Positions 42,605 to 54,124 of a stretch of DNA of 64,000 bases are shown here, piece by piece; the stretch's first letter is position 1, and each line of letters starts with the position of its first letter. The notes below the pieces were generated by a model, which made no database searches, was not told the origin of the DNA, and saw only the letters and a list, made by a program, of their open reading frames with translations. This stretch comes from a phage. The stretch lies in NCBI GenBank assembly GCA_022901335.1, contig GCA_022901335.1_3641.1, one strand, 5' to 3'. Position numbers and translations under genes: made by a program.

Positions 42605-43810
42605 ATGATTTTCATCTACGAACATTTCAAAACCCGTAAAGAAGCACGAGACCGCCGTGCAGAACTTGAGAAGAAGGGTTTCACATGTGCCATTGAGAAA
42701 GGCGACACAACCTGGACACTGGCAGTTGGTGCCCCAGAGTTGTTCGATCCTGACCGTGACAGCGTCTGCTACACCCGTGAGGATTTTGAAACCCGCGAAG
42801 AGGCCCGTTTATTTCGATACGGTCTGGAAGATAACGGTAAGTACGCTATGATCTTAGATTTAGGCGAAGGTTCCGTTAAACGTTGGGGCGTGGTATACCC
42901 ACTGTGTGTTGTTCACGGTGTGGGGTTCACTGGGGTAGCAATCAAGTCAGAAGAACCTTTAGTAGAAGTCAAAGATCCGGTGCTGGAGGTGGTGAGCAGT
43001 GTGTCTCAGCAACAGACTCGAAGCATCGAGCCTTTGGTAGTTATTTGTGGTGAACTCCTCCAGATCACCTGCAACGAAGGCATTTTTGAAATTCGCCGCA
43101 GCGAAAGTGAGGAAGTTTACCAGAAAGTCTTCGACCATATCTCTGTTCAGGAATATGATGAGGCAATTGGTGAAATCCTTGTCTGGCTGGAACGCAAGAA
43201 TGAGTTCACCACACTTGCAGACAACCTGATCATGAAAGATGGTAAGCTCTACTACTACGGTGTAGAGATGCGATCCACCATTGCAAAGAAAATTGAGAAA
43301 GATTATGCAGACGGAACGCTGGATGACCGCTATGTGAAATTCCTCGTTCGCCTGCTACGCAATCCTTCTGCAAAATCTGTAAACATGCTCTACGATTTTA
43401 TGCAGGCCAACGATATCCAGATTGCAGAAGATGGTCGAATCATTTGCTACAAAGGGGTTCAGTTTAACGGCAGCAAGTGGGTGGATTGGCACAGTGGTAA
43501 AGTTCCACAATACCAGGGTGCTTTTGTATCCATGCCTCGTAACTTTGTAGAGGATGATCCGGAAGCTGCGTGCTCCTATGGCTTACACTGCGCCAGCAAA
43601 GAGTATGCAAAGAGCTACGGCACTGTAATGACTGTTATGGTTGATCCTGCAGATGTGGTTAGTGTGCCATACCAACACAATAGCGCTAAGTGCCGTGCAT
43701 GCCGCTATGAGATTGTGGTAGCTCCGGAAGCACGCAAAGATGGAGACCCTATTGAATATGTAGTTGATCGTGACGGTAACACTATCGACATTCTTTACGA
43801 GGAGGCGTAA
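42605..43810 (+). CDS. rIIB: rIIB-like protein
   Basis: C-terminal LYDFMQANDIQIAEDG...SYGLHCASKEY...VMVDPADVVSVPY...CRACRYEIV parallels T4 rIIB; adjacent to rIIA. Confidence 0.7.
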   Translation: MIFIYEHFKTRKEARDRRAELEKKGFTCAIEKGDTTWTLAVGAPELFDPDRDSVCYTREDFETREEARLFRYGLEDNGKYAMILDLGEGSVKRWGVVYPLCVVHGVGFTGVAIKSEEPLVEVKDPVLEVVSSVSQQQTRSIEPLVVICGELLQITCNEGIFEIRRSESEEVYQKVFDHISVQEYDEAIGEILVWLERKNEFTTLADNLIMKDGKLYYYGVEMRSTIAKKIEKDYADGTLDDRYVKFLVRLLRNPSAKSVNMLYDFMQANDIQIAEDGRIICYKGVQFNGSKWVDWHSGKVPQYQGAFVSMPRNFVEDDPEAACSYGLHCASKEYAKSYGTVMTVMVDPADVVSVPYQHNSAKCRACRYEIVVAPEARKDGDPIEYVVDRDGNTIDILYEEA

Positions 43811-45180
43811 TGGAAAAAGGGCAGTATGATGTAGGCACAGATGCTGCCCTCGTTGCAATCATGAGCGGTGAGAATGTCTTCGTTTCAGGACCCGCAGGTT
43901 GTGGGAAGACGTACCTCATCAACATGATCCAGTCAATGTATGGAGACTCTTGCATAACGGTTGCCCCGACAGGGGTAGCCGCTTTAAACGTTAATGGAGC
44001 AACAGCACACCGAACCTTCGATCTTGCAGCAGGTGTGAGCATGGAGTCAGACTGGACCGCAATAAGGGCAAAAACAGCAAAGCCTTTGAAAAGCAAGGCA
44101 TTTACCATCCTAATTATCGATGAAATCTCTATGATCCGTGCTGATAAGTTTATAGAGATGGATAGGAAACTCCGCTTCCTTCGAAAAAATGACAAACCTT
44201 TCGGAGGCATACAGGTCATATTGTTTGGCGATTTTTACCAGGCACCTCCTGTTGTCTCTTCTATGGAGAAGGAAGCCTACTTCAACTTCTACCATACGGA
44301 CCTGTGTTGCTACACCGAATCTTGGAAAGAACTTGACCTCCACAACATAGCTCTAATAGATCAGTTCCGACAGGAGTCTATTCGATTTGCCACAATGCTC
44401 AACTGTGTTCGTGAGGGTCGTCGCATAAAAGAGGTTGTAGCAGAACTTAATGCTCGCTGTTACAAAGGCGGTGTACCAACAGACGCTCTCACAATTTGCG
44501 CCACCAACAAACAAGCGGAGGAAGTGAACAGAAGGTTCTATGATGCCATCAACGCCCCAGAGAAGGTATACACTGGTGAAATGAAAGGTAAGTTTCCCTC
44601 CACCCTGCCAGTTGAGCAGGAGATGAAGTTGAAAATTGGCATGAAGGTTATGATAACCGCCAACGATGTTGACCCGACGCACAAAGTACCTTATTATGTT
44701 AACGGAACACGTGCCACGATTGTTAAATTTAAGAACAAGGCGGTGGTGGTGGAGCTTGAAGATGGAACACAGGTTGACATAGAGCAAAGGTTGTGGGAGA
44801 ATAACGAGTATAAGCCATCTCAAAGATACAACATTGCAGAAAGGAAGATGGAGAAGTTTATAGAGAGGGTAGTGATTGGATCATACAGGCAACTTCCTCT
44901 GAAATCTGGGTACGCCGTAACATCTCATAAAAGTCAAGGACTTACGCTAGATTGTTACAACCTGGACCTTGGAAAGAACGGAGCTTTCTCTCCTGGGATG
45001 ACGTATGTTGCTTTGAGTCGAGTTAAGACAATACAAGGAATAAACTTGTTGCGTCCACTAAGAGAAGTTGACATTATTGTTGACCCGCGAGTCGTAGAGT
45101 TTTACAATACAACATTCCCTGACTTAGACAAAATTGTCAGGAAAGATTTTGAAACCAGAGCAGAAGAGGGGGACGTATGA
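43810..45180 (+). CDS. Dda/Pif1-like SF1 DNA helicase
   Basis: Walker A SGPAGCGKTY, motif Ia TVAPTGVAA, motif II LIIDEISM, GDFYQAPPV, motif VI TSHKSQGLTLD. Confidence 0.75.
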   Translation: MEKGQYDVGTDAALVAIMSGENVFVSGPAGCGKTYLINMIQSMYGDSCITVAPTGVAALNVNGATAHRTFDLAAGVSMESDWTAIRAKTAKPLKSKAFTILIIDEISMIRADKFIEMDRKLRFLRKNDKPFGGIQVILFGDFYQAPPVVSSMEKEAYFNFYHTDLCCYTESWKELDLHNIALIDQFRQESIRFATMLNCVREGRRIKEVVAELNARCYKGGVPTDALTICATNKQAEEVNRRFYDAINAPEKVYTGEMKGKFPSTLPVEQEMKLKIGMKVMITANDVDPTHKVPYYVNGTRATIVKFKNKAVVVELEDGTQVDIEQRLWENNEYKPSQRYNIAERKMEKFIERVVIGSYRQLPLKSGYAVTSHKSQGLTLDCYNLDLGKNGAFSPGMTYVALSRVKTIQGINLLRPLREVDIIVDPRVVEFYNTTFPDLDKIVRKDFETRAEEGDV

Positions 45181-45518
45181 GTTTGTGGAGAAATATAGTT
45201 AACTACGTGTGTGGCAATCCAACTCCTGAAGAGAAGGATGTTGTGATTCACGATTTTACTAAAAGATCTCGTGAAAAAGACCTGCTGCTAACAAAGGTGG
45301 TTGATAAAGATCCTGCAGTCGGGGACTGGGCAGGTTTTGCGTTTACATCGGACAAATACACCTTTAACAAAGGTGACTATCTTGTTGTAGATTTTAACGA
45401 AGACATTGAGGGTGCTGAACCTTACTATCAGACCCTTATTATTGCAGGGTGCGTTGATCTCTCTGCAGGAATGCACAGTTTGATTCTTTTTGAGCTTGAC
45501 TCTGAAGACCTTCAGTAG
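45177..45518 (+). CDS. hypothetical protein
   Basis: 113 aa, overlap-coupled. Confidence 0.5.
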   Translation: MSLWRNIVNYVCGNPTPEEKDVVIHDFTKRSREKDLLLTKVVDKDPAVGDWAGFAFTSDKYTFNKGDYLVVDFNEDIEGAEPYYQTLIIAGCVDLSAGMHSLILFELDSEDLQ

Positions 45519-45578
45519 TAAGATGTTAGTCTAAAGGGGAGGCACTCCTCCCCACAAAAACTAAGGAAGCACTAAACG

Positions 45579-45881
45579 ATGAAACGTTATAAACCATACA
45601 CTTTTGAAATCGATTTCGAACTTGACGATATGTTTACTGTGGAAGCTCAAGCAGTTGTCCAGTTGCCAGACTCGGAGTGCCGTGACTCTGATGTTGACTA
45701 TTACGGATTTAGACAAATTACCGATGTGCGTGTTTACCACAACGGTGAAGAGGTGGACTTCCACCAACTACCAAACGATATGCGCCACTTAATTTACAAA
45801 CGTGCAGCCCGTGAACTAGAGTCCTATCTGGATGCAGCGACGACAGCAGCTGCATTTGCTGAAGAAGTTGGAGGTTTCTGA
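45579..45881 (+). CDS. hypothetical protein
   Basis: 100-aa ORF. Confidence 0.5.
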   Translation: MKRYKPYTFEIDFELDDMFTVEAQAVVQLPDSECRDSDVDYYGFRQITDVRVYHNGEEVDFHQLPNDMRHLIYKRAARELESYLDAATTAAAFAEEVGGF

Positions 45882-46276
45882 TGATTACAGGTGTGAAGAT
45901 TATCCAATACCACTTAACCAAATTGGAAGATGCTGAAAAAGAGCTTGCAGAAGTTCTGAATAGTGGATATACTTTGCTATCATGCGCCTGCTCAGATACC
46001 TACGCTGTGTGGACACTTACCCGGAAGGAAGAGCCTGCATGGGTCTTGGTGCCAAACCCTAAGATTATTAGTGAGGTGGATGACTACCCTCAGGACGGTC
46101 TGCCAGAAGACTGGGTAGTATGGGAAGGTGGTGAAAACCCTGCACCAGGTAAGTGGGTAAAATATAAACTACGTAGTGGTGCACAGTACGCTGACTACTC
46201 TGATAACCTAGACTGGAGTCATTCTTCACTAGGATCGTCTGCAAGTTCATATGATATCGTTGCTTTTCAGGAATAA
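45881..46276 (+). CDS. hypothetical protein
   Basis: 131 aa, ATGA overlap. Confidence 0.5.
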   Translation: MITGVKIIQYHLTKLEDAEKELAEVLNSGYTLLSCACSDTYAVWTLTRKEEPAWVLVPNPKIISEVDDYPQDGLPEDWVVWEGGENPAPGKWVKYKLRSGAQYADYSDNLDWSHSSLGSSASSYDIVAFQE

Positions 46277-46288
46277 GGAGAAGGTGGT

Positions 46289-46771
46289 ATGTCAGATTTT
46301 ATGTGGAAAGTTGGTTATTCCTCCCCTGAAATGTGTAAAGCCTGTTTTGTGAAAATAGGTCGCGAAGATATCGACAAAGTGATCCTTAAGTTTCGTGATG
46401 TGGCTGTGATCGGCAACCGAGTGCTTAAGCACTTAAAGAATCTGAAGCTCACCAAAAAGAAATTCTTCGGACTTTTCGAAGAGAAAGTTGATGCTTGGAC
46501 CCATTGCATTCAGGAAGCTAAATCTCACTACAGTGCCATCATTACCCCAGAACGGGTAGCCAAGATGGAAGGATTCATCAACAGCACAGAGTTTGAGTGC
46601 CTGAAAGCTGCACTTGATAGTTATCCGAAATGCCTCAAGCACTTGGACAAGTATGTAGAAAAGGATGGGGAAATGTATCTAACCCTGGACGCATATTATG
46701 AGATGCAAGAAATTTTAAATTTAGATTTGACATTGGTATCCACCGAGTATACAATAGGTATCCGGGTTTAA
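46289..46771 (+). CDS. hypothetical protein
   Basis: 160 aa, RBS AAGGAGAAGG. Confidence 0.5.
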   Translation: MSDFMWKVGYSSPEMCKACFVKIGREDIDKVILKFRDVAVIGNRVLKHLKNLKLTKKKFFGLFEEKVDAWTHCIQEAKSHYSAIITPERVAKMEGFINSTEFECLKAALDSYPKCLKHLDKYVEKDGEMYLTLDAYYEMQEILNLDLTLVSTEYTIGIRV

Positions 46772-46777
46772 CACTAG

Positions 46778-46806
46778 GCCCTGCCCGAAAGGGTGGGGCT
46801 TTTTGC
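46778..46806 (+). terminator. rho-independent terminator (GCCCTGCCC-GAAA-GGGTGGGGC + T-run), copy 1
   Basis: 9-bp stem with 2 G-U pairs, GAAA loop, TTTTT; identical hairpin at 58545. Confidence 0.55.
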
Positions 46807-46822
46807 ATTAGGAGACAGCAAA

Positions 46823-47587
46823 TTGAAATTTATCTACAAAGAACACTACCACAAAGGTGTTGTGTGGAGTCTGTTTGACGGGTCTGGTGGTGCAGTCATT
46901 GACTGGGCAAAAGCTGGGTACCTGTGCCTGTGCTTTAATGCAGAAGGTGCTGATCACGGCAGTTATGCAGAGGTGATAACCGATCATCCCAACATTCACT
47001 ATGTGGATTATTGGATTGACCCATGGTTCCCTCAGGAAACTTTTTGCATGTACCCAGCTCCAGACTTTATTCTTGCATTTCCTCCGTGCACGCATTTAGC
47101 GGTATCAGGTGCTGCACATTTTAAGAAAAAGCTGGCTAAGGATCCTTTGATCCAAATTAATGCTGTAAAGGATGCTCGGGTTGCGGAAGAACTGGGAGAG
47201 ATTTACGATTGCCCGTGGCATGTAGAGAATCCTGTTGGTGTTATGTCCACACTGTGGCGCAAACCTGATTACCGTTTTCATCCTTCTGACTATGGCGGGT
47301 ATTTACCGGAGGATGATGTAAACCCCTGGTTTCCTGAATTTATAGCTCCACGTGATGCCTATCCAAAAATAACTTGCGGCTGGATAGGTAATGGATTTAT
47401 AATCCCGGCCACAAAACCTGTCCCGCAAATAGTTGACGCGGTTAGCGGGTATTCCATGCAACACGCCAAGCTGGGCGGAAAGAGTGCAAGAACGAAGATG
47501 ATCCGAAGCCTCACACCACGTGGCTGGGCAAAAGCCGTATTCTTAGCAAACGAGCCTGCAGTAAGGAGAAGGGCAAATGGTTGTTGA
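46823..47587 (+). CDS. short C5-cytosine-methyltransferase-like protein
   Basis: TTG start after RBS AGGAGA; motif I-like LFDGSGG, PC motif FPPC, ENV-like ENPVG; lacks a recognisable target-recognition domain. Confidence 0.4.
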   Translation: MKFIYKEHYHKGVVWSLFDGSGGAVIDWAKAGYLCLCFNAEGADHGSYAEVITDHPNIHYVDYWIDPWFPQETFCMYPAPDFILAFPPCTHLAVSGAAHFKKKLAKDPLIQINAVKDARVAEELGEIYDCPWHVENPVGVMSTLWRKPDYRFHPSDYGGYLPEDDVNPWFPEFIAPRDAYPKITCGWIGNGFIIPATKPVPQIVDAVSGYSMQHAKLGGKSARTKMIRSLTPRGWAKAVFLANEPAVRRRANGC

Positions 47588-48251
47588 CTGGAGCAAGTAT
47601 TTCACCTATAGCGACGGCAAACTGTTCTGGGCGTATACCGCAAAAGCCGGAAGGGGTAGGATCATACATTACGCAGGTGAGGAGGCCACAGGCACAGATA
47701 AAGATGGCTATAGAGTAATAAATGTGTCAGGTGTTGGAAGTGTTCGTAGGCACAGAATAATTTGGGAGATGCATTACGGAGAGATACCTGAAGGTCTTGT
47801 TGTTCGGCACAAGAACGACATAGCAGGGGACGACAGGATAGAGAACCTAATCCTGGGGACACAAGGTGATAATGCACGAGACATGATCTACAGTGACAAG
47901 CTAAACATTAACAATACCTCAGGGTATCGTGGCGTGCGCTATCATAGAGGTATAAAAAGATGGACTGCATCTGCTGGAGACATATACTTAGGGTGTTTTA
48001 AGACAAAAGAGGATGCAATTGCATGCAGAAAGTTATGGGAGAAAGGAAAATTCGTCCCGCAAGAATTAGATGTTAGAAACACTAGCGGTGTAACAGGGGT
48101 GTTCTATGTGCCGAGCTCTGGAAGGTGGAGAGTCCGAGTGCAAAGCGGCAAAAAGAGAAAGAGCTATGGCACTTACAACACTTTAGAAGAAGCAAAAGCT
48201 GTAAGGGATAAGGTGATGAAAGAGATTGAGGAGTTTAAAGATGGGGAATAA
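47577..48251 (+). CDS. HNH homing endonuclease with two AP2 DNA-binding domains
   Basis: HNH_3 motif HRIIWEMHYGEIPEGLVVRHKNDIAGDDRIENLILGTQGDN; AP2-like SGYRGVRYH...W and SGVTGVFY...GRWRVRV...YGTYNTLEEA. Confidence 0.7.
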   Translation: MVVDWSKYFTYSDGKLFWAYTAKAGRGRIIHYAGEEATGTDKDGYRVINVSGVGSVRRHRIIWEMHYGEIPEGLVVRHKNDIAGDDRIENLILGTQGDNARDMIYSDKLNINNTSGYRGVRYHRGIKRWTASAGDIYLGCFKTKEDAIACRKLWEKGKFVPQELDVRNTSGVTGVFYVPSSGRWRVRVQSGKKRKSYGTYNTLEEAKAVRDKVMKEIEEFKDGE

Positions 48252-50319
48252 GTTTATACCCTCTGCATATAGCCGCTATGGAGAACCTAACCCAGTTGCA
48301 ACAAGATACAAAAGCGGAGGTAGTATGAAACGAGACTATCGCGATGAAAAAGAGGTTGAAACTGTAGAGACCGTTTTAGAAAATACTAAAATTGTCCCTG
48401 TCCCACAACAAAATATCGGTCTGATGGCTGCACAATATTTTGGTGTGCGATCAGCATTGTCCCAAGAGGACGGTGTGACAGTAACTGCAACATATTTCCC
48501 ATATTACGACCGCTACGGAAATCTATCTGGCTTTAAAAAGCGTGATTGGTCTAAGCCAAAAGAGCAGAAAGGGCACTGGTCTGTAGTGGGCATCGTAAAG
48601 GCCAACTCCCAGATGTTTGGTCAAAAGCTGTGTGCATCTTCCAACAACCGTAAGCAGATTAACGTTTGTGAGGGAGAAGGTGATGTTATTGCAGCATGGC
48701 AGGCTGCATATCAGATACAAGTAAAAGGGATTCTCACCAACGCTAAAGCCCCGGCAAAGGTGAAGCAGTGGGCTAAAGAGGTCCAGGACGGGATCGACGC
48801 AGTTATCAACGGTGGTGATCTGGCAGGAAAACCCTGCCTACCTTTTGTTGGAATTAACTGTGGATGTGCAAACGCAGTAGATACTTTTGCAAACAATGAG
48901 AAGTTTATCCGTAGCTATGGAACAGTTGTGCTGGCAATGGATAACGATGCAGCTAACGAGGTAGAGAAGCAAAAACACGTCATTAAAGGTGTTGAGGCTA
49001 CGCACAATATCGCAGCATTTTTGATGGCTGATAACGTTTACCACGTAGAGTACCCTGGTGAAGTAAACGATCCTGACGGTGTAAAAGATATCCGTGACAT
49101 GCTAAAGGCTAAAAAGCTGGAAGATATTGTCAACATGTTCCGTCACCCAGTCAAATATGTGCCCGATGCTGTATCTGATTTAGAAGACTTCTCCATTGAA
49201 TCTCTTCGTAAGAAGACTTCTAATGGCGTAGATATCAGCGCGGAGTTCCCTAAATTGCAGAAGATGCTGAAAGGACTCCACAAAGGCACCTTGATGATGC
49301 TGACAGGCCCATCTGGCGGTGGTAAAACAACTGTAGCCAAGAAACTAGAACACTGCATTGCAAAATACTTGATGGATCCGACATGCCCTAAAGCCGATGA
49401 TTATGAAGAGGATGATCGCCTGTGTCTGATTCACCTTGAAGAGGACCCTGAGGAAGCAATTAACTCTCTATACGCCAACCAGTTGGGGTTTGATGTTAAA
49501 GAGTTTGTTGAAGACCCTAGTCAGTTCCTGACTGATCAGGAGCATGCTGAGATTCACCAATCTTGGGCCAAGGCTGGAAAAATCAAAGTGTTCAAGCATT
49601 TTGGGTCTATTCCTGTAGATGAGTTGATCACTAAGCTTAAACAAATGGTGTGTCTGTATCACTGCCGTTACATTGTGCTGGATCACCTGTCCATGGTAAT
49701 TTCAGGGCTTAATGTTAAGGATGAGCGCAAAGAACTTGACATGGCTATGACGCAACTAGCCGCGTTCTGCAAGCAGTTTAATGTATTTATCTTGGTGATC
49801 GCTCACCTGAAACGCATAGAGATTGTGCCTCCAAAGGACAAGGATGGGAATCCGTTACCTTTCTGGTATCCTGTACGAAAAGAGAACCTTCGGGGTAGTG
49901 CCGGATTGGAGCAACTTAGCTGGGTAGTTGTTGGGGTGGAGGCAGAAGAGATGGTGGATCGTTCCCGTGGACGTGTCCGACTGGTAGGTCTTAAAAACCG
50001 CCCAGCAAAAACGTTAGGCATTGCGGATACCTTAGTTATGGATCCCCACACAGGTAAGTTCCATGATGCCAGCAACTGGTACTGGGACAAAGAAATGCAG
50101 ATGTTCACAGACGGCGAAGGTGGGGAGGTTGTTTGGAGACCTCAAGCTATGTTTGAGGATCAAGGGCACGCAGTTGTAGAAACACCTGTAGGTAGGGTTG
50201 TGGCTGATAAGGTTGTAACTCCTACTGTTAACCCTGTTGACACACAAGAAGATCTCCCGTATGATGATCCGTCCTCTGACCATGTTCCCGGTTTTGAGGA
50301 TGATGAAACACCTTTTTAA
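48241..50319 (+). CDS. primase-helicase (Toprim primase + DnaB/T7 gp4-like helicase)
   Basis: ATG 48241 after RBS GAGG; Toprim CEGEGD and LAMDNDAANE; Walker A GPSGGGKTT; Walker B-like IVLDHL. Confidence 0.75.
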   Translation: MGNKFIPSAYSRYGEPNPVATRYKSGGSMKRDYRDEKEVETVETVLENTKIVPVPQQNIGLMAAQYFGVRSALSQEDGVTVTATYFPYYDRYGNLSGFKKRDWSKPKEQKGHWSVVGIVKANSQMFGQKLCASSNNRKQINVCEGEGDVIAAWQAAYQIQVKGILTNAKAPAKVKQWAKEVQDGIDAVINGGDLAGKPCLPFVGINCGCANAVDTFANNEKFIRSYGTVVLAMDNDAANEVEKQKHVIKGVEATHNIAAFLMADNVYHVEYPGEVNDPDGVKDIRDMLKAKKLEDIVNMFRHPVKYVPDAVSDLEDFSIESLRKKTSNGVDISAEFPKLQKMLKGLHKGTLMMLTGPSGGGKTTVAKKLEHCIAKYLMDPTCPKADDYEEDDRLCLIHLEEDPEEAINSLYANQLGFDVKEFVEDPSQFLTDQEHAEIHQSWAKAGKIKVFKHFGSIPVDELITKLKQMVCLYHCRYIVLDHLSMVISGLNVKDERKELDMAMTQLAAFCKQFNVFILVIAHLKRIEIVPPKDKDGNPLPFWYPVRKENLRGSAGLEQLSWVVVGVEAEEMVDRSRGRVRLVGLKNRPAKTLGIADTLVMDPHTGKFHDASNWYWDKEMQMFTDGEGGEVVWRPQAMFEDQGHAVVETPVGRVVADKVVTPTVNPVDTQEDLPYDDPSSDHVPGFEDDETPF

Positions 50320-50377: not shown

Positions 50378-53300
50378 ATGAGCATGTGGTCTTTCGATTT
50401 TGAGTCATCCGGTTTGCTGGAAGACCCAGATCTTTATTATCACTGCGGCCTGTTTAAAGAGTTGAATAAGAACCGTTTTATGCTGTTCCTTCCTCTGAAT
50501 GACCGCACACACTACTCCGAGGAGGATATAGAGAAGGCTAAGAACTTTATTCTGGCAAAGAAAACTCTTTATAAGGATTTTGAAGTTCGCATAGCAGATT
50601 TTTCAGAGTTGGAAGGTTGGCTTACAGGCAATTCTGACTGGTCACCCACAGCTTTGAACTGCCACAACTGCTACAGCTACGACTTTATGCTGATGGAGAG
50701 ATTGTCCGGTATTCATTTTGATATGTTCCGTGATCCTAAGTGCATGGGGACTATCAACGACCACCAAGTTAATCTGTTTGATACGTTGGCGATGAGCCGA
50801 ATCTTGTGGCCTGATCGCCCTTTACCAAAAGGTTGTCCGGACTCTGTATTCAACCCGGTTACTAAGAAAATGCAGCCTGTTGGTCCTCACGGCCTTATGG
50901 CATGGGGCTACGCCCTTGGTAACCAGAAAGTTCAAATTGATGACTGGCGCGATCTTCCGTTGTGGAAGTATGTGGATCGTGTATTCGAGGACGTTATCAT
51001 CCAGGAGCTGCTCTGGAAAGAGCTGGTAGCGGAATCAAAAGGTGTATTCTACGGCAAATCTGACATGCAGAACTTTATGTACGATCCAGCCAAAGAGAAG
51101 CCGAAAGGGTTCAAGAAGATCACCTGGAAGAACGCATTACGTCGAGGAATGCTGCAGCACTTCCTGATGGAGCTGCAGGCCCGTCAGGGTGTATACTTCG
51201 ACATAGATGGGGCTATTGCTTTACGTGACCGTTGCGATGCGTGGATGAAAGAAATCGCTGATCGTGTTGAACCACAACTGCCTTTAAAAGAGCTGTCAAT
51301 GTCTCAGCGGCCCAAGTTCCCTGAAAAGCCGTTTAACCAAGACGGGACAATCTCTAATAATGGTTGGAAATGGTTAAAAGATAAGCTTGGCTATCCTGTA
51401 GACATGAGTGCTTTAGAGTTCAAAGCCCCGCCTAAGCGAGCATTTACCTCTACAGGAGATGTCAGTAAGATGGGGATAAAATGGTGTGAAGAGATGGGCT
51501 GCAAAGACCCCGATAAGATGGCTGATTTCTTGAGAGGCTATATTAAGGGCACCTCCACACCACAACCTTTACCTAAAGAGCTAATGGATCAGGCAATAAG
51601 TGATCTACAGCAGAAGCGAATGCCGGACTGCAAGATACCTATGAAAATCAGCAACCAGGACGACATTAAGCGATACCTGATCAGTGCTGGTTGGCTTCCA
51701 ACAATGTGGAGAACTAAGGATGTAACTAAAGACAGCAAGAAGAAAGCTCTACCTGATGCAGATGTTGATGCACGAGTATATGCATATATGGACGAGCTTT
51801 TAGAGTCAGAGTATTGTGACCTGATTATCAACTTCTGGAACAAAACTGATGCTAAGTTCCAGACAACCGTGCACAAGTTCCGAAGCTTTCCTAACTCCGA
51901 AAGGATTAAAAAGGAAGTATTCGGGAAAATACGTAGAAAAGCTAGGGCACTTATTACTTCTCCGCAACTGAAAGATACGTTTGGACACCTATGCCCTAAT
52001 CTTGAAAAATTGAACGGAGAGATGGCTAAAGATATCGTCTTGTGGTTATCATTGCGAAACCGCAGATCGGTCCTTGATCCAATCAAGGAGGATAAGGTTG
52101 ATACTGGTCTTCTTAATCACCCACGTTTGAAGATTGACCATAAGCTTCCTGCTAAAAGTTCTGGATTAACAAACACTTCCCGACAGAAACACAGTATTTG
52201 TGCAAACATGCCTAAACCATCTCCTAAAGTGGTTATGGGTAAAGAGATGCGTAGTCTGTGGGGTGTTCCTCCAGGATACTTTGAGATCGGTATTGACGGG
52301 TCCAACTTAGAGCAGCTTATCGGGGCTTGGGGTGCCTTTGAGTTCGACAACGGCCTGTATTACGATGTTGTAAGTAATGGCGATGCACACTGTTATTCAG
52401 GAGATACACAAATTCTCACGGAGAAAGGGTGGGTGAGGTTTGAAGATCTTGATCCGGGAACACAAGTGTTCCAGTACGATCACAGCACCTCGTCAATGAA
52501 CCTTGTTACTCCATTAAATTACGTTAAGCGTAGTTATTATGGGGATATGTATCATTTCCACAACAGTAGTGTGGATTTTATGGTTACAGATCAACACCGG
52601 ATGCTGACTGTGGATCACAGAAGCAATAAATTGTTTGAAGATTTGGCAAAAGACCTGAAAGCAGGTAAAGGGTCTAATTCAGGAAGAAGGTTTATCCATG
52701 CGGCAGAGTTTTATGGGAATACAGCCTTATCTCCTGCCCAGGTTAATTTGCTTATTGCTATTCACGATGATGGGCACTTGCATACAAATAAGGACGGCAG
52801 CATCGTGTGCAGGATTCAGGTCGGAAAGGGAAGAAAAGTTGCAACGCTTTTAGATACTTTTTCTGCTCTAAGCCTTAGTTATGTAGAGCAGAGCGGGAAA
52901 ACCACAAAAGGAGGCTTACTGGCGAGAAGGTTCCAATTCCACGTTCCGTCCTGGGTATTTGAGTTTTTGGACAGCAATAAGGATTTCACCTACAACCTGA
53001 TGAACCTTGATAAAGAATCTAAAAACCTGTTTATAGCTTCTTTATCTAACTGGGACGGGTGGGTATCTTCCGAAGGTGGAAAGGTTGCTTACTACTCTCA
53101 GGCCGAGTGCAGGAAGAAATCTGTAGAGGTGGTGTCTGCGCTGGCTACTCAGTGTGGTTTACGGAATAATACGGTGGCGATTCACAAAAAAGGTCGTGCC
53201 GTGCAGCACAGAATCACAATTGGTAGCAAACAAAGAGCAGGGTTGCTGACACTATCTAAAGAGTCTGTCGAGGTGAGCGGTTCTTTGGTTTATTGCGTTA

Positions 53301-54124
53301 CCGTCCCTTCTGGAGCAATCATTGTGAGAAGGAATGGTAAAGTGGCAGTGTGCGGTAACTGTAATAACGCCAAAGCTTACTCTTCTGTAGCAGGCAAGGA
53401 GATTTCCCGTAACGACGGTAAACCTATCACGTATGGGGTTATGTACGGGGCACAAAAAGATAAAGTTGCAGATATGCTGGACATCTCTCCAGAGTTGGGA
53501 CAAAGGGTAATCGATGCGCTTTGGGATGCCAACCCTGGTCTTAAGGGCCGTAAAGAGGATCTGGAGAAATTCTGGGAAGCAACGGGTAAGAAGTTTATCT
53601 ACTCTTTTGATGGTCATGCCATCTGGACCCGATCTAAACACTCTTTACTTAATGCATACCAACAGAATGGTGGTGCATCGCTGTGTGACTTGGTTGGGAT
53701 ACTTATGCACCACCAAATGGTGAAGCGTGGGTGGTACGATGAAGGTGTTCGTCGTATTATCTATTACCATGACGAATATCAGCTTCAAGTACCTGACACA
53801 CCGAAGTATAAGACTGTGTACACCTTCGACACAATTGAAGAATTGGAAGCATTTAAGGCAGAGCAGGAGGCCAAACTTCATGTGTTCGACGGTCATAAGT
53901 ACAAAAAGGCACGCAAGGATGAAAACGGAAACGAAGTGGTTGACAGAGACGGAAACACGGTGTACGATCCTATCCTGAACGATGACGGAAAGCTTGAACT
54001 TATCTGGAGTCCTGTGGGCGAAATGGTGGTACATTGCTTCTGGCAAGCTTCTAAAATGATGGGAGTCCCGTTCCAGATCACAGGTGAATACTTGTGTGGT
54101 CGTAATTGGGGTGATTGTCACTAA
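50378..54124 (+). CDS. family A (T7-like) DNA polymerase with intein insertion
   Basis: Exo I FDFESSGL; motif A IGIDGSNLEQL; motif B RNDGKPITYGVMYG; motif C YYHDEYQLQV; about 323 aa inserted between A and B. Confidence 0.85.
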   Translation: MSMWSFDFESSGLLEDPDLYYHCGLFKELNKNRFMLFLPLNDRTHYSEEDIEKAKNFILAKKTLYKDFEVRIADFSELEGWLTGNSDWSPTALNCHNCYSYDFMLMERLSGIHFDMFRDPKCMGTINDHQVNLFDTLAMSRILWPDRPLPKGCPDSVFNPVTKKMQPVGPHGLMAWGYALGNQKVQIDDWRDLPLWKYVDRVFEDVIIQELLWKELVAESKGVFYGKSDMQNFMYDPAKEKPKGFKKITWKNALRRGMLQHFLMELQARQGVYFDIDGAIALRDRCDAWMKEIADRVEPQLPLKELSMSQRPKFPEKPFNQDGTISNNGWKWLKDKLGYPVDMSALEFKAPPKRAFTSTGDVSKMGIKWCEEMGCKDPDKMADFLRGYIKGTSTPQPLPKELMDQAISDLQQKRMPDCKIPMKISNQDDIKRYLISAGWLPTMWRTKDVTKDSKKKALPDADVDARVYAYMDELLESEYCDLIINFWNKTDAKFQTTVHKFRSFPNSERIKKEVFGKIRRKARALITSPQLKDTFGHLCPNLEKLNGEMAKDIVLWLSLRNRRSVLDPIKEDKVDTGLLNHPRLKIDHKLPAKSSGLTNTSRQKHSICANMPKPSPKVVMGKEMRSLWGVPPGYFEIGIDGSNLEQLIGAWGAFEFDNGLYYDVVSNGDAHCYSGDTQILTEKGWVRFEDLDPGTQVFQYDHSTSSMNLVTPLNYVKRSYYGDMYHFHNSSVDFMVTDQHRMLTVDHRSNKLFEDLAKDLKAGKGSNSGRRFIHAAEFYGNTALSPAQVNLLIAIHDDGHLHTNKDGSIVCRIQVGKGRKVATLLDTFSALSLSYVEQSGKTTKGGLLARRFQFHVPSWVFEFLDSNKDFTYNLMNLDKESKNLFIASLSNWDGWVSSEGGKVAYYSQAECRKKSVEVVSALATQCGLRNNTVAIHKKGRAVQHRITIGSKQRAGLLTLSKESVEVSGSLVYCVTVPSGAIIVRRNGKVAVCGNCNNAKAYSSVAGKEISRNDGKPITYGVMYGAQKDKVADMLDISPELGQRVIDALWDANPGLKGRKEDLEKFWEATGKKFIYSFDGHAIWTRSKHSLLNAYQQNGGASLCDLVGILMHHQMVKRGWYDEGVRRIIYYHDEYQLQVPDTPKYKTVYTFDTIEELEAFKAEQEAKLHVFDGHKYKKARKDENGNEVVDRDGNTVYDPILNDDGKLELIWSPVGEMVVHCFWQASKMMGVPFQITGEYLCGRNWGDCH
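52391..53359 (+). mobile_element. intein with LAGLIDADG homing-endonuclease domain inside the DNA polymerase gene
   Basis: block A CYSGDTQILTEKGWV after extein GDAH; block B TDQH; LAGLIDADG-like LLIAIHDDGHL and FIASLSNWDGW; ends VAVCGN before +1 Cys. Confidence 0.65.

Follow-up and report, generated by a model that had tools for sequence, protein, structure and literature searches.

The window analysed here is the whole of a 64,000-nucleotide stretch of phage DNA (NCBI GenBank assembly GCA_022901335.1, contig GCA_022901335.1_3641.1). On its + strand, positions 46823–47587 hold a compact orphan open reading frame (ORF) of 254 amino acids plus stop, in a replication module in which a PIF1-like helicase gene, four small ORFs, this ORF, an HNH-AP2 gene, a DnaB-like primase/helicase gene and a family-A polymerase gene follow one another. 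The ORF very probably encodes a stand-alone DNA cytosine-5 methyltransferase (C5-MTase) that depends on S-adenosylmethionine (AdoMet) and belongs to a compact, phage-specific clade, PHROG 757. This assignment is based here on the fold, on the motifs and their conservation, on family membership, on orphan status and on homology to a characterised enzyme. The formation of 5-methylcytosine (5mC) by a 54%-identical homologue is taken from the literature, and it is the activity, the target sequence and the anti-restriction role of the window protein that we infer.

Judging by nucleotide identity, the window is that of an rV5-like Vequintavirus, since the region is 97% identical to HeinrichReichert (BASEL Bas58) and about 96% identical to rV5. 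The methyltransferase gene is already known: it is annotated in near-identical genomes and its family has a characterised member. In Escherichia phage HeinrichReichert it is bas58_0073, a ‘Dcm-like C5 cytosine methyltransferase’ with 99.2% protein identity, and in rV5 it is gp226 (ORF 231; about 96% nucleotide identity), labelled ‘DNA methyltransferase’. Both orthologues share the start, the length and the position upstream of the primase/helicase gene with the window gene. Many other records call it a ‘hypothetical protein’; the family lies outside the Pfam and NCBIfam models and is therefore often left under this name. For the window itself, the result is thus the routine annotation of a known orphan phage methyltransferase.

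The gene, its family and its catalytic motifs

Two starts are possible for the ORF that stops at 47587, GTG 46793 and TTG 46823. TTG 46823 is the better start because a ribosome-binding site, AGGAGA, can be read from the sequence 6 nt upstream of it (46811–46816, + strand), because GTG 46793 lies inside a hairpin and because relatives start at the same site: the equivalent of TTG 46823 is used in the HeinrichReichert and rV5 records and in the 254-residue cluster representative P0001. On comparative sequence grounds the ORF is a real gene and not a chance reading frame, since it has 3,546 homologues (word-indexed protein search), 1,504 phage records with a tblastn match and 2,058 clusters (50% identity) that match the family profile at E ≤ 1e-3 (exhaustive profile search). 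Nearly all of these cluster members have 200–260 residues, so that compactness is the normal state of the family and not the result of truncation. At the nucleotide level, 117 phage records match the ORF at 90–99% identity, and outside the last 35 nt or so the coding sequence is 93–100% identical to that of rV5.

The match to PHROG 757 (‘DNA methyltransferase’) has an E value of 8e-87 and spans residues 2–251, and the hallmarks of this clade (FPPC, ENP, PKxT and GGKSxRTKxIRSLTPRG) are all present in the window protein. The family is widespread in phages of Escherichia, Klebsiella, Salmonella and Vibrio. Scanning the members with N-terminal extensions for fusions yielded a single Pfam domain, a C-terminal HNH in one member; the extensions of P0243, P0254 and P0270, of 170–200 residues, have no Pfam match. 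It should also be noted that in some uncultured phages (BFVD models A0A6J5SE15 and A0A6J5NPY6) the compact methyltransferase domain is found inside helicase-like proteins of 1,100–1,400 residues.

The original prediction had described an ORF of about 255 residues with LFDGSGG, FPPC and ENPVG in this order, and these are indeed found at residues 17–23, 86–89 and 135–139 (46871–46891, 47078–47089 and 47225–47239, respectively, all + strand). The first, motif I, would form the AdoMet-binding loop and aligns with F18–G23 of M.HhaI, F18-D-G20-S-G22 falling on F18-A-G-L-G; in the wider family it is relaxed to LFDxTG. Motif IV contains Cys89, the predicted catalytic nucleophile, which aligns with Cys81 of M.HhaI, with the PC motif of DNMT3B and with Cys82 of the Dcm enzyme of phages K42 and KarlJaspers. 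Motif VI contains Glu135, equivalent to E128 of this characterised homologue, and its E135-N-P aligns with the ENV of M.HhaI (greedy hhalign). The spacings between F18 and C89 and between C89 and E135 are 71 and 46 residues, compared with 63 and 38 in M.HhaI. Across the 59 relatives used to measure conservation (31–54% identity to the window protein), C89 and E135 never vary, and P87, T90, N136, P137, K182, T184, R228, S229, P232 and G234 are conserved to at least 90%, a pattern that fits selection on C5-MTase chemistry. Together with the PHROG 757 match, the invariance of C89 and E135 upholds the C5-MTase-like character that had been proposed for the protein, and the three motifs named at the outset are its real catalytic motifs.

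A family-specific conserved block follows (residues 155–184, SDYGGYLPEDD...PRDAYPKIT; 47285–47374, + strand). It holds the ‘DYG’ of motifs VII/VIII, with ‘DYGG.LP’ aligning with the canonical ‘DYGIPQ’, and also K182, which corresponds to K175 of the characterised homologue. Beyond this block there is no separate target-recognition domain (TRD), in line with the prediction that none was obvious: the last core strand and the C-terminal block are separated by only about 35 partly variable residues (190–225). The variable loop at residues 190–215 (47390–47467, + strand), which differs from that of the KarlJaspers-type enzyme, is the sole candidate for a minimal target-recognition region.

The C-terminal block GGKSARTKMIRSLTPRG (residues 218–234; 47474–47524, + strand) is highly conserved and resembles motif IX, and is followed by a final helix. 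Its near-invariant RSLTPRG aligns with motif IX of Dcm (RRLTPREC) and of M.HhaI (RKLHPREC), although these alignments are statistically weak: RSLTPRGWAKAV pairs with RRLTPRECARLM of Dcm (BLASTP, E value of 1.3) and with RKLHPRECARVM of M.HhaI (hhalign, total E value of 0.045), in a colinear arrangement that is not significant on its own. Greedy local hhalign against M.HhaI and Dcm (E value of 0.045, low probability) is colinear over the whole protein; it pairs motif I, PC, ENV and DYG and places the C-terminal block IRSLTPRGWAKAV on motif IX of M.HhaI, RKLHPRECARVM. This colinear result is specific to the greedy local mode, global hhalign against the same two enzymes giving meaningless end-overlaps. 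The initial claim that both motif IX and motif X are missing is therefore to be divided: there is no GN[AS]V and motif X is not detectable, whereas motif IX is apparently present in the weakly aligned RSLTPRG, and its supposed absence was probably an error. The final helix (residues 233–251) may stand in structurally for the motif X helix.

Fold, characterised homologue and proposed role

Direct searches of Pfam, NCBIfam and the PDB with the single window protein returned nothing usable; it took family profiles and a structure model to connect it with C5-MTases. An alignment of 26 homologues (A1) served for this purpose, and a further alignment (A3) was used together with A1 for the motif II position. 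Taken individually, 12 of the 26 members of A1 reach PF00145 (best E value of 1.3e-6), and three of them (P0054, P0070 and P0072) exceed its gathering score with 24.7–28.5 bits (cut-off 22), their matches covering only profile positions 4–94 of 324, that is, motifs I–IV. When the A1 profile was compared with the PDB, all 11 matches were C5-MTases (DNMT3B and M.HaeIII), with E values of about 0.35 and alignments running from motif I to the Pro-Cys. With hhalign, F18 falls on F18 and C89 on the catalytic Cys81 of M.HhaI, the sequence of which was checked and matches 10mh_A exactly.

The AlphaFold model calculated from A1 is a confident one, with a pLDDT of 87.7 and a pTM of 0.89. The top 50 Foldseek matches of this model in the PDB are all catalytic domains of DNMT3A, DNMT3B or DNMT3C; M.HhaI and M.HaeIII also match by fold, and DNMT2 scores below the DNA methyltransferases. 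Among the models of a viral structure library, it is family members with the label DNA-cytosine methylase that come closest (TM up to 0.9). As modelled, the window protein thus has the Class I Rossmann-like catalytic fold of C5-MTases. The profile search that had been suggested as a check has accordingly been run and leaves the prediction standing, as its specific matches are only methyltransferases: PHROG 757, PF00145 in relatives, and DNMT3, M.HhaI and M.HaeIII by fold. Specific similarity to Escherichia coli Dcm, including its TRD, was not found (the best BLASTP E value was 1.3 over 12 residues, and hhalign covered only the PC region with an E value of 0.17), so that ‘Dcm-like’ is to be taken merely as a label.

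Experimental information comes from the literature on a homologue. Gene bas06_0055 of phage KarlJaspers (Bas06), exactly 711 bp long, encodes a protein that shares 54% identity with the window protein over 235 residues (E value of 3e-86), and the genome of phage K42 is 95.4% identical to that of KarlJaspers/Bas06 (bioRxiv 10.1101/2023.08.16.553469). In the same study, all four K42 phages that escaped retron Ec86 had lost or disrupted the 711-bp dcm gene, and expression of K42 dcm was toxic only when Ec86 was present. Liquid chromatography coupled to mass spectrometry (LC-MS) showed that wild-type K42 Dcm raised 5mC on the multicopy single-stranded DNA (msDNA), whereas a C82A/E128A/K175A/K176A mutant did not, and defence by Ec86 needed an intact CCTGG in a double-stranded stem (bioRxiv 10.1101/2023.08.16.553469). 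The four mutated residues fall on C89, E135, K182 and I183 of the window protein. Given the 54% identity and the 711-bp length of bas06_0055, a member of the window protein's own family therefore makes 5mC in DNA. The nucleotide-modifying enzyme that the original prediction had also considered is dismissed on this ground, since DNA is what the 54%-identical homologue methylates.

By analogy with the superfamily, Cys89 of FPPC would attack C6 of a flipped-out cytosine, Glu135 of ENP would contact N3/N4 of this cytosine, and the methyl group would pass from AdoMet, held at the LFDGSG loop, to C5, giving 5mC. As the gene lies within the replication module, it is presumably expressed while phage DNA is made, and the enzyme would most likely methylate a short site in phage DNA and, incidentally, in other DNA of the cell. 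Such methylation would blunt some host type II restriction, the anti-restriction role being the conventional inference, and it would also expose the phage to defences that sense methylation, retron Ec86 among them. In the five contexts inspected, which come from four phage groups [Vequintavirus, Hanrivervirus (KarlJaspers), Krischvirus (JSE), a Dhillonvirus-like phage (Psq-1) and Webervirus (Sin4)], the gene has no conserved nuclease or modification partner at its side, cmoA, TET and ligase genes included, and the methyltransferase would therefore act alone. The term ‘orphan’ used for it from the start is borne out by the same contexts, none of which has a cognate nuclease.

Several observations weigh against the assignment or limit what can be carried over from the homologue. 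The window protein alone has no Pfam or NCBIfam match even at E ≤ 1, its links to canonical enzymes by sequence are at the detection limit (E values of 0.02–0.4), and the weak methyltransferase matches in the PDB were lost entirely with the more diverse profile of 59 sequences. The canonical QxRxR of motif VIII is absent, with PK[K/I]T-C in its place; GN[AS]V of motif X is undetectable, and the protein ends about 20 residues past the motif-IX-like block. At position 39, the acidic residue of motif II that normally binds the AdoMet ribose is an Asp in at least 90% of the wider family, and an Asn in the enterobacterial-phage clade that includes the window protein and the KarlJaspers-type enzyme. 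On the experimental side, the Ec86 study is a preprint that used a quadruple mutant and a dcm+ host, and its CCWGG target was assumed from the host Dcm, is supported only by the msDNA-stem mutation and is unmapped (bioRxiv 10.1101/2023.08.16.553469). Because of Ile183 and of the different recognition loop, neither the level of activity nor the specificity can be transferred with certainty to the window protein.

The target and the benefit to the phage are subject to similar caution. CCWGG is mildly under-represented in the 64-kb window (102 sites observed for 156 expected, a ratio of 0.66), but so are CCGG (0.73), GTAC (0.63) and CTAG (0.55); since many sites are mildly depleted, composition supports no particular target. 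We found no mapped methylation motif for the compact family in the literature. The BASEL work, which contains no type IV restriction data, reported for Drexlerviridae that methyltransferase genes of phages are not tied in any simple way to restriction resistance, which also speaks against the anti-restriction role, and in a Klebsiella phage paper a Webervirus with its own cytosine methyltransferase was still cut by HaeIII.

We may wonder whether these deviations from the canonical enzymes point to a protein of another kind. An inactive relic, or a non-catalytic DNA-binding protein that keeps only the methyltransferase fold, could also lack a Pfam match and motif X, have a non-canonical motif VIII, show Asn at motif II in place of Asp/Glu and have Ile183 at the site of a Lys in the characterised enzyme. 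This is nevertheless highly improbable: the catalytic Cys and Glu are invariant in the 59 relatives despite identities as low as 31%, the gene is preserved in the 117 phage records and between the window and rV5, and the unusual features, the Asn of motif II included, are common to the KarlJaspers-type enzyme, which makes 5mC. Compactness is likewise a family trait and not a truncation, and the degenerate relic envisaged earlier is rejected for the same two reasons, family-wide size and invariant catalytic residues.

The chemistry or the substrate could also be different. A CmoX-like cytosine C5-carboxymethyltransferase would use carboxy-S-adenosylmethionine (Cx-SAM) made by E. coli CmoA and would give 5-carboxymethylcytosine, not 5mC. 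We attach hardly any weight to this reading, since wild-type CmoX accepts only Cx-SAM (PMC12783734), whereas the K42 homologue, with the same IRSLTPRG block, gave 5mC in a cmoA+ host. Moreover, motif IV of the window protein begins with Phe and not with Ser, genes for CmoA, a CmoY-type ligase or a ParB-domain protein are absent from its neighbourhood both here and in the other phage groups inspected, and in fold comparisons the scores of DNMT3B and other true methyltransferases are equal or higher. That the main substrate is RNA, as in the formation of 5-methylcytosine in tRNA by DNMT2, or else single-stranded or replicating DNA without a defined sequence specificity, is quite unlikely in view of the lower fold score of DNMT2 and of the substrate of the homologue, which is DNA, with the defence needing an intact CCTGG in a double-stranded stem (bioRxiv 10.1101/2023.08.16.553469). 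Nothing in the gene context points to RNA modification.

The preferred reading thus remains that of a DNA C5-MTase. A bolder proposal, which we put forward only tentatively and consider possible but rather doubtful, is that the clade represents a distinct minimal C5-MTase architecture without TRD, motif X or the arginines of QxRxR, that its target is short, relaxed or read by an oligomer, and that the rV5-type enzyme, whose recognition loop differs from that of the one characterised homologue, does not target CCWGG. The reasoning is that, with these three elements missing, the target would be very short, relaxed or read by oligomerisation, as in DNMT3. If this were true, the family would be among the smallest natural DNA cytosine methyltransferases and would act as a general ‘methylation alarm’ sensed by defence systems. 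The family is in any case among the few phage proteins known to trigger a retron, and it shows how far a C5-MTase can be pared down. Its target sequence matters for predicting how sensitive rV5-like phages and other phage-therapy candidates would be to restriction and to defences that sense methylation.

Upstream signals and neighbouring genes

A strong sigma-70-like promoter, TTGACA-17-TACAAT (46727–46755, + strand; 11 of 12 matches), lies within the 3′ end of the upstream ORF, and its equivalent is annotated as ‘P231’ in the rV5 record. About 20 nt downstream of this promoter and directly before the ribosome-binding site of the methyltransferase gene, a GC-rich 11-bp hairpin is followed by a T-run in a terminator-like arrangement (46776–46801, + strand), which covers GTG 46793; the fold energy of 46762–46830 is −22.8 kcal/mol (z of −1.85). 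As the hairpin lies 3′ of the promoter, transcripts from the latter would meet a terminator-like structure at once. The hairpin could be an attenuator, a 5′ stabiliser or the plain terminator of the upstream operon.

On the downstream side, an ORF of 224 residues (47577–48251, + strand) matches Pfam HNH_3 (E value of 2e-17) and, in two stretches, AP2 (E value of 2e-10); these domains, together with its patchy occurrence at a fixed site and its diverged flanks, mark it as a free-standing mobile homing-endonuclease gene. It overlaps the methyltransferase ORF by exactly 11 nt (47577–47587), confirming the 11-nt overlap and the HNH-AP2 identity originally proposed, and it has an 11-nt overlap with the primase gene too. 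The latter, a DnaB-like primase/helicase gene (48241–50319, + strand), directly follows the methyltransferase gene in relatives without the HNH gene. This is the case of rV5 and most relatives, in which the two genes overlap directly; the HNH-AP2 gene is found in four of the 117 closely related records. The insertion is clean, its site being exactly the ATG at which the methyltransferase gene of rV5 overlaps the primase/helicase gene. It alters the last four residues of the methyltransferase (…RRANGC compared with …SRINGK) and leaves the conserved core untouched.

Divergence from rV5 flanks the insertion on both sides (47540–47587 and 48241–48360): identity drops to 82% over the last 35 nt or so of the methyltransferase gene, and for the first 120 nt of the primase gene the values are 70% and 85%, compared with 97–100% elsewhere, and the changes at the N-terminus of the primase are mostly synonymous or conservative. 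The flanking divergence looks like a co-conversion tract of homing or a cleavage-immune variant of the target. Inside the primase/helicase gene, at a distance from the HNH insertion, there is another short patch of low identity (48541–48600, 68% to rV5 over 60 nt).

Further upstream, the gene at 43810–45180 encodes a PIF1-like helicase (PF05970, E value of 1e-32) and is annotated as a DNA helicase in HeinrichReichert. The rV5 RefSeq record calls this gene (gp230) a ‘methyltransferase’, similar to the N-terminus of an adenine methylase, which is probably a legacy mis-annotation. The four small ORFs at 45177–46771 (113, 100, 131 and 160 residues) have no Pfam match; those of 131 and 160 residues match PHROGs 11995 and 12900, of unknown function, and the N-terminus of the 131-residue ORF also matches, weakly, a PHROG with the label DNA ligase (E value of 6.5e-6). 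At the other end of the module, the family-A DNA polymerase ORF (50378–54124) is continuous and unusually long (1,248 residues). Within its residues 672–1010 or so, a match to the N-terminus of a Hint domain, CYSGDTQILTEKGW (Hint_2, E value of 7e-5, below the Pfam cut-off), suggests that the polymerase ORF carries an intein. The HeinrichReichert record instead gives the polymerase as a two-piece join with a separate homing-endonuclease gene between the parts, so that the mobile elements in this gene seem to differ between the two phages.

Comparison with known methyltransferases

M.HhaI, M.HaeIII and E. coli Dcm share with the window protein the fold and the order of motifs I, IV, VI and the VII/VIII ‘DYG’ and, by weak alignment, of motif IX. 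Compared with these canonical enzymes the window protein is 70–220 residues shorter, without the separate small (TRD) domain, GN[AS]V or QxRxR. The carboxymethyltransferase CmoX (PDB entry 8yf3) is a protein of 333 residues with a full TRD, an SPPC motif and a defined Arg350, and its gene usually stands beside cmoA, ligase or ParB genes (PMC12783734). The FPPC of the window protein shares PPC with the SPPC of CmoX, the first residue being Phe instead of Ser. R228 and R233 of the window protein lie near the position of Asn304 of M.HhaI, which is an Arg in CmoX, and may or may not be its structural equivalents.

The closest characterised system is the Dcm of K42/KarlJaspers. It is similarly compact (236 residues compared with 254), and both proteins have FPPC, ENP, PK-T, GGKSxRTKxIRSLTPRG and the Asn of motif II; both genes are orphans in lytic coliphages, although the K42/KarlJaspers phages are Drexlerviridae and the window phage belongs to the Vequintavirinae. 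The experimental data come from the K42 enzyme only. The two proteins differ in the loop between the core and the C-terminal block, which is unrelated (…DNPGW… in the KarlJaspers-type enzyme compared with …GYSMQH… in the window protein), in a 10-residue basic tail of the window protein and in its Ile183, where the K42 enzyme has K176. The catalytic domain of DNMT3A/3B, finally, shares only 12–16% identity with the window protein, retains motifs VIII and X and acts on CpG as a DNMT3L/DNMT3 oligomer; yet it is this DNMT3 catalytic domain, with its small TRD, that the window enzyme most resembles in having a loop of about 35 residues in place of a TRD.

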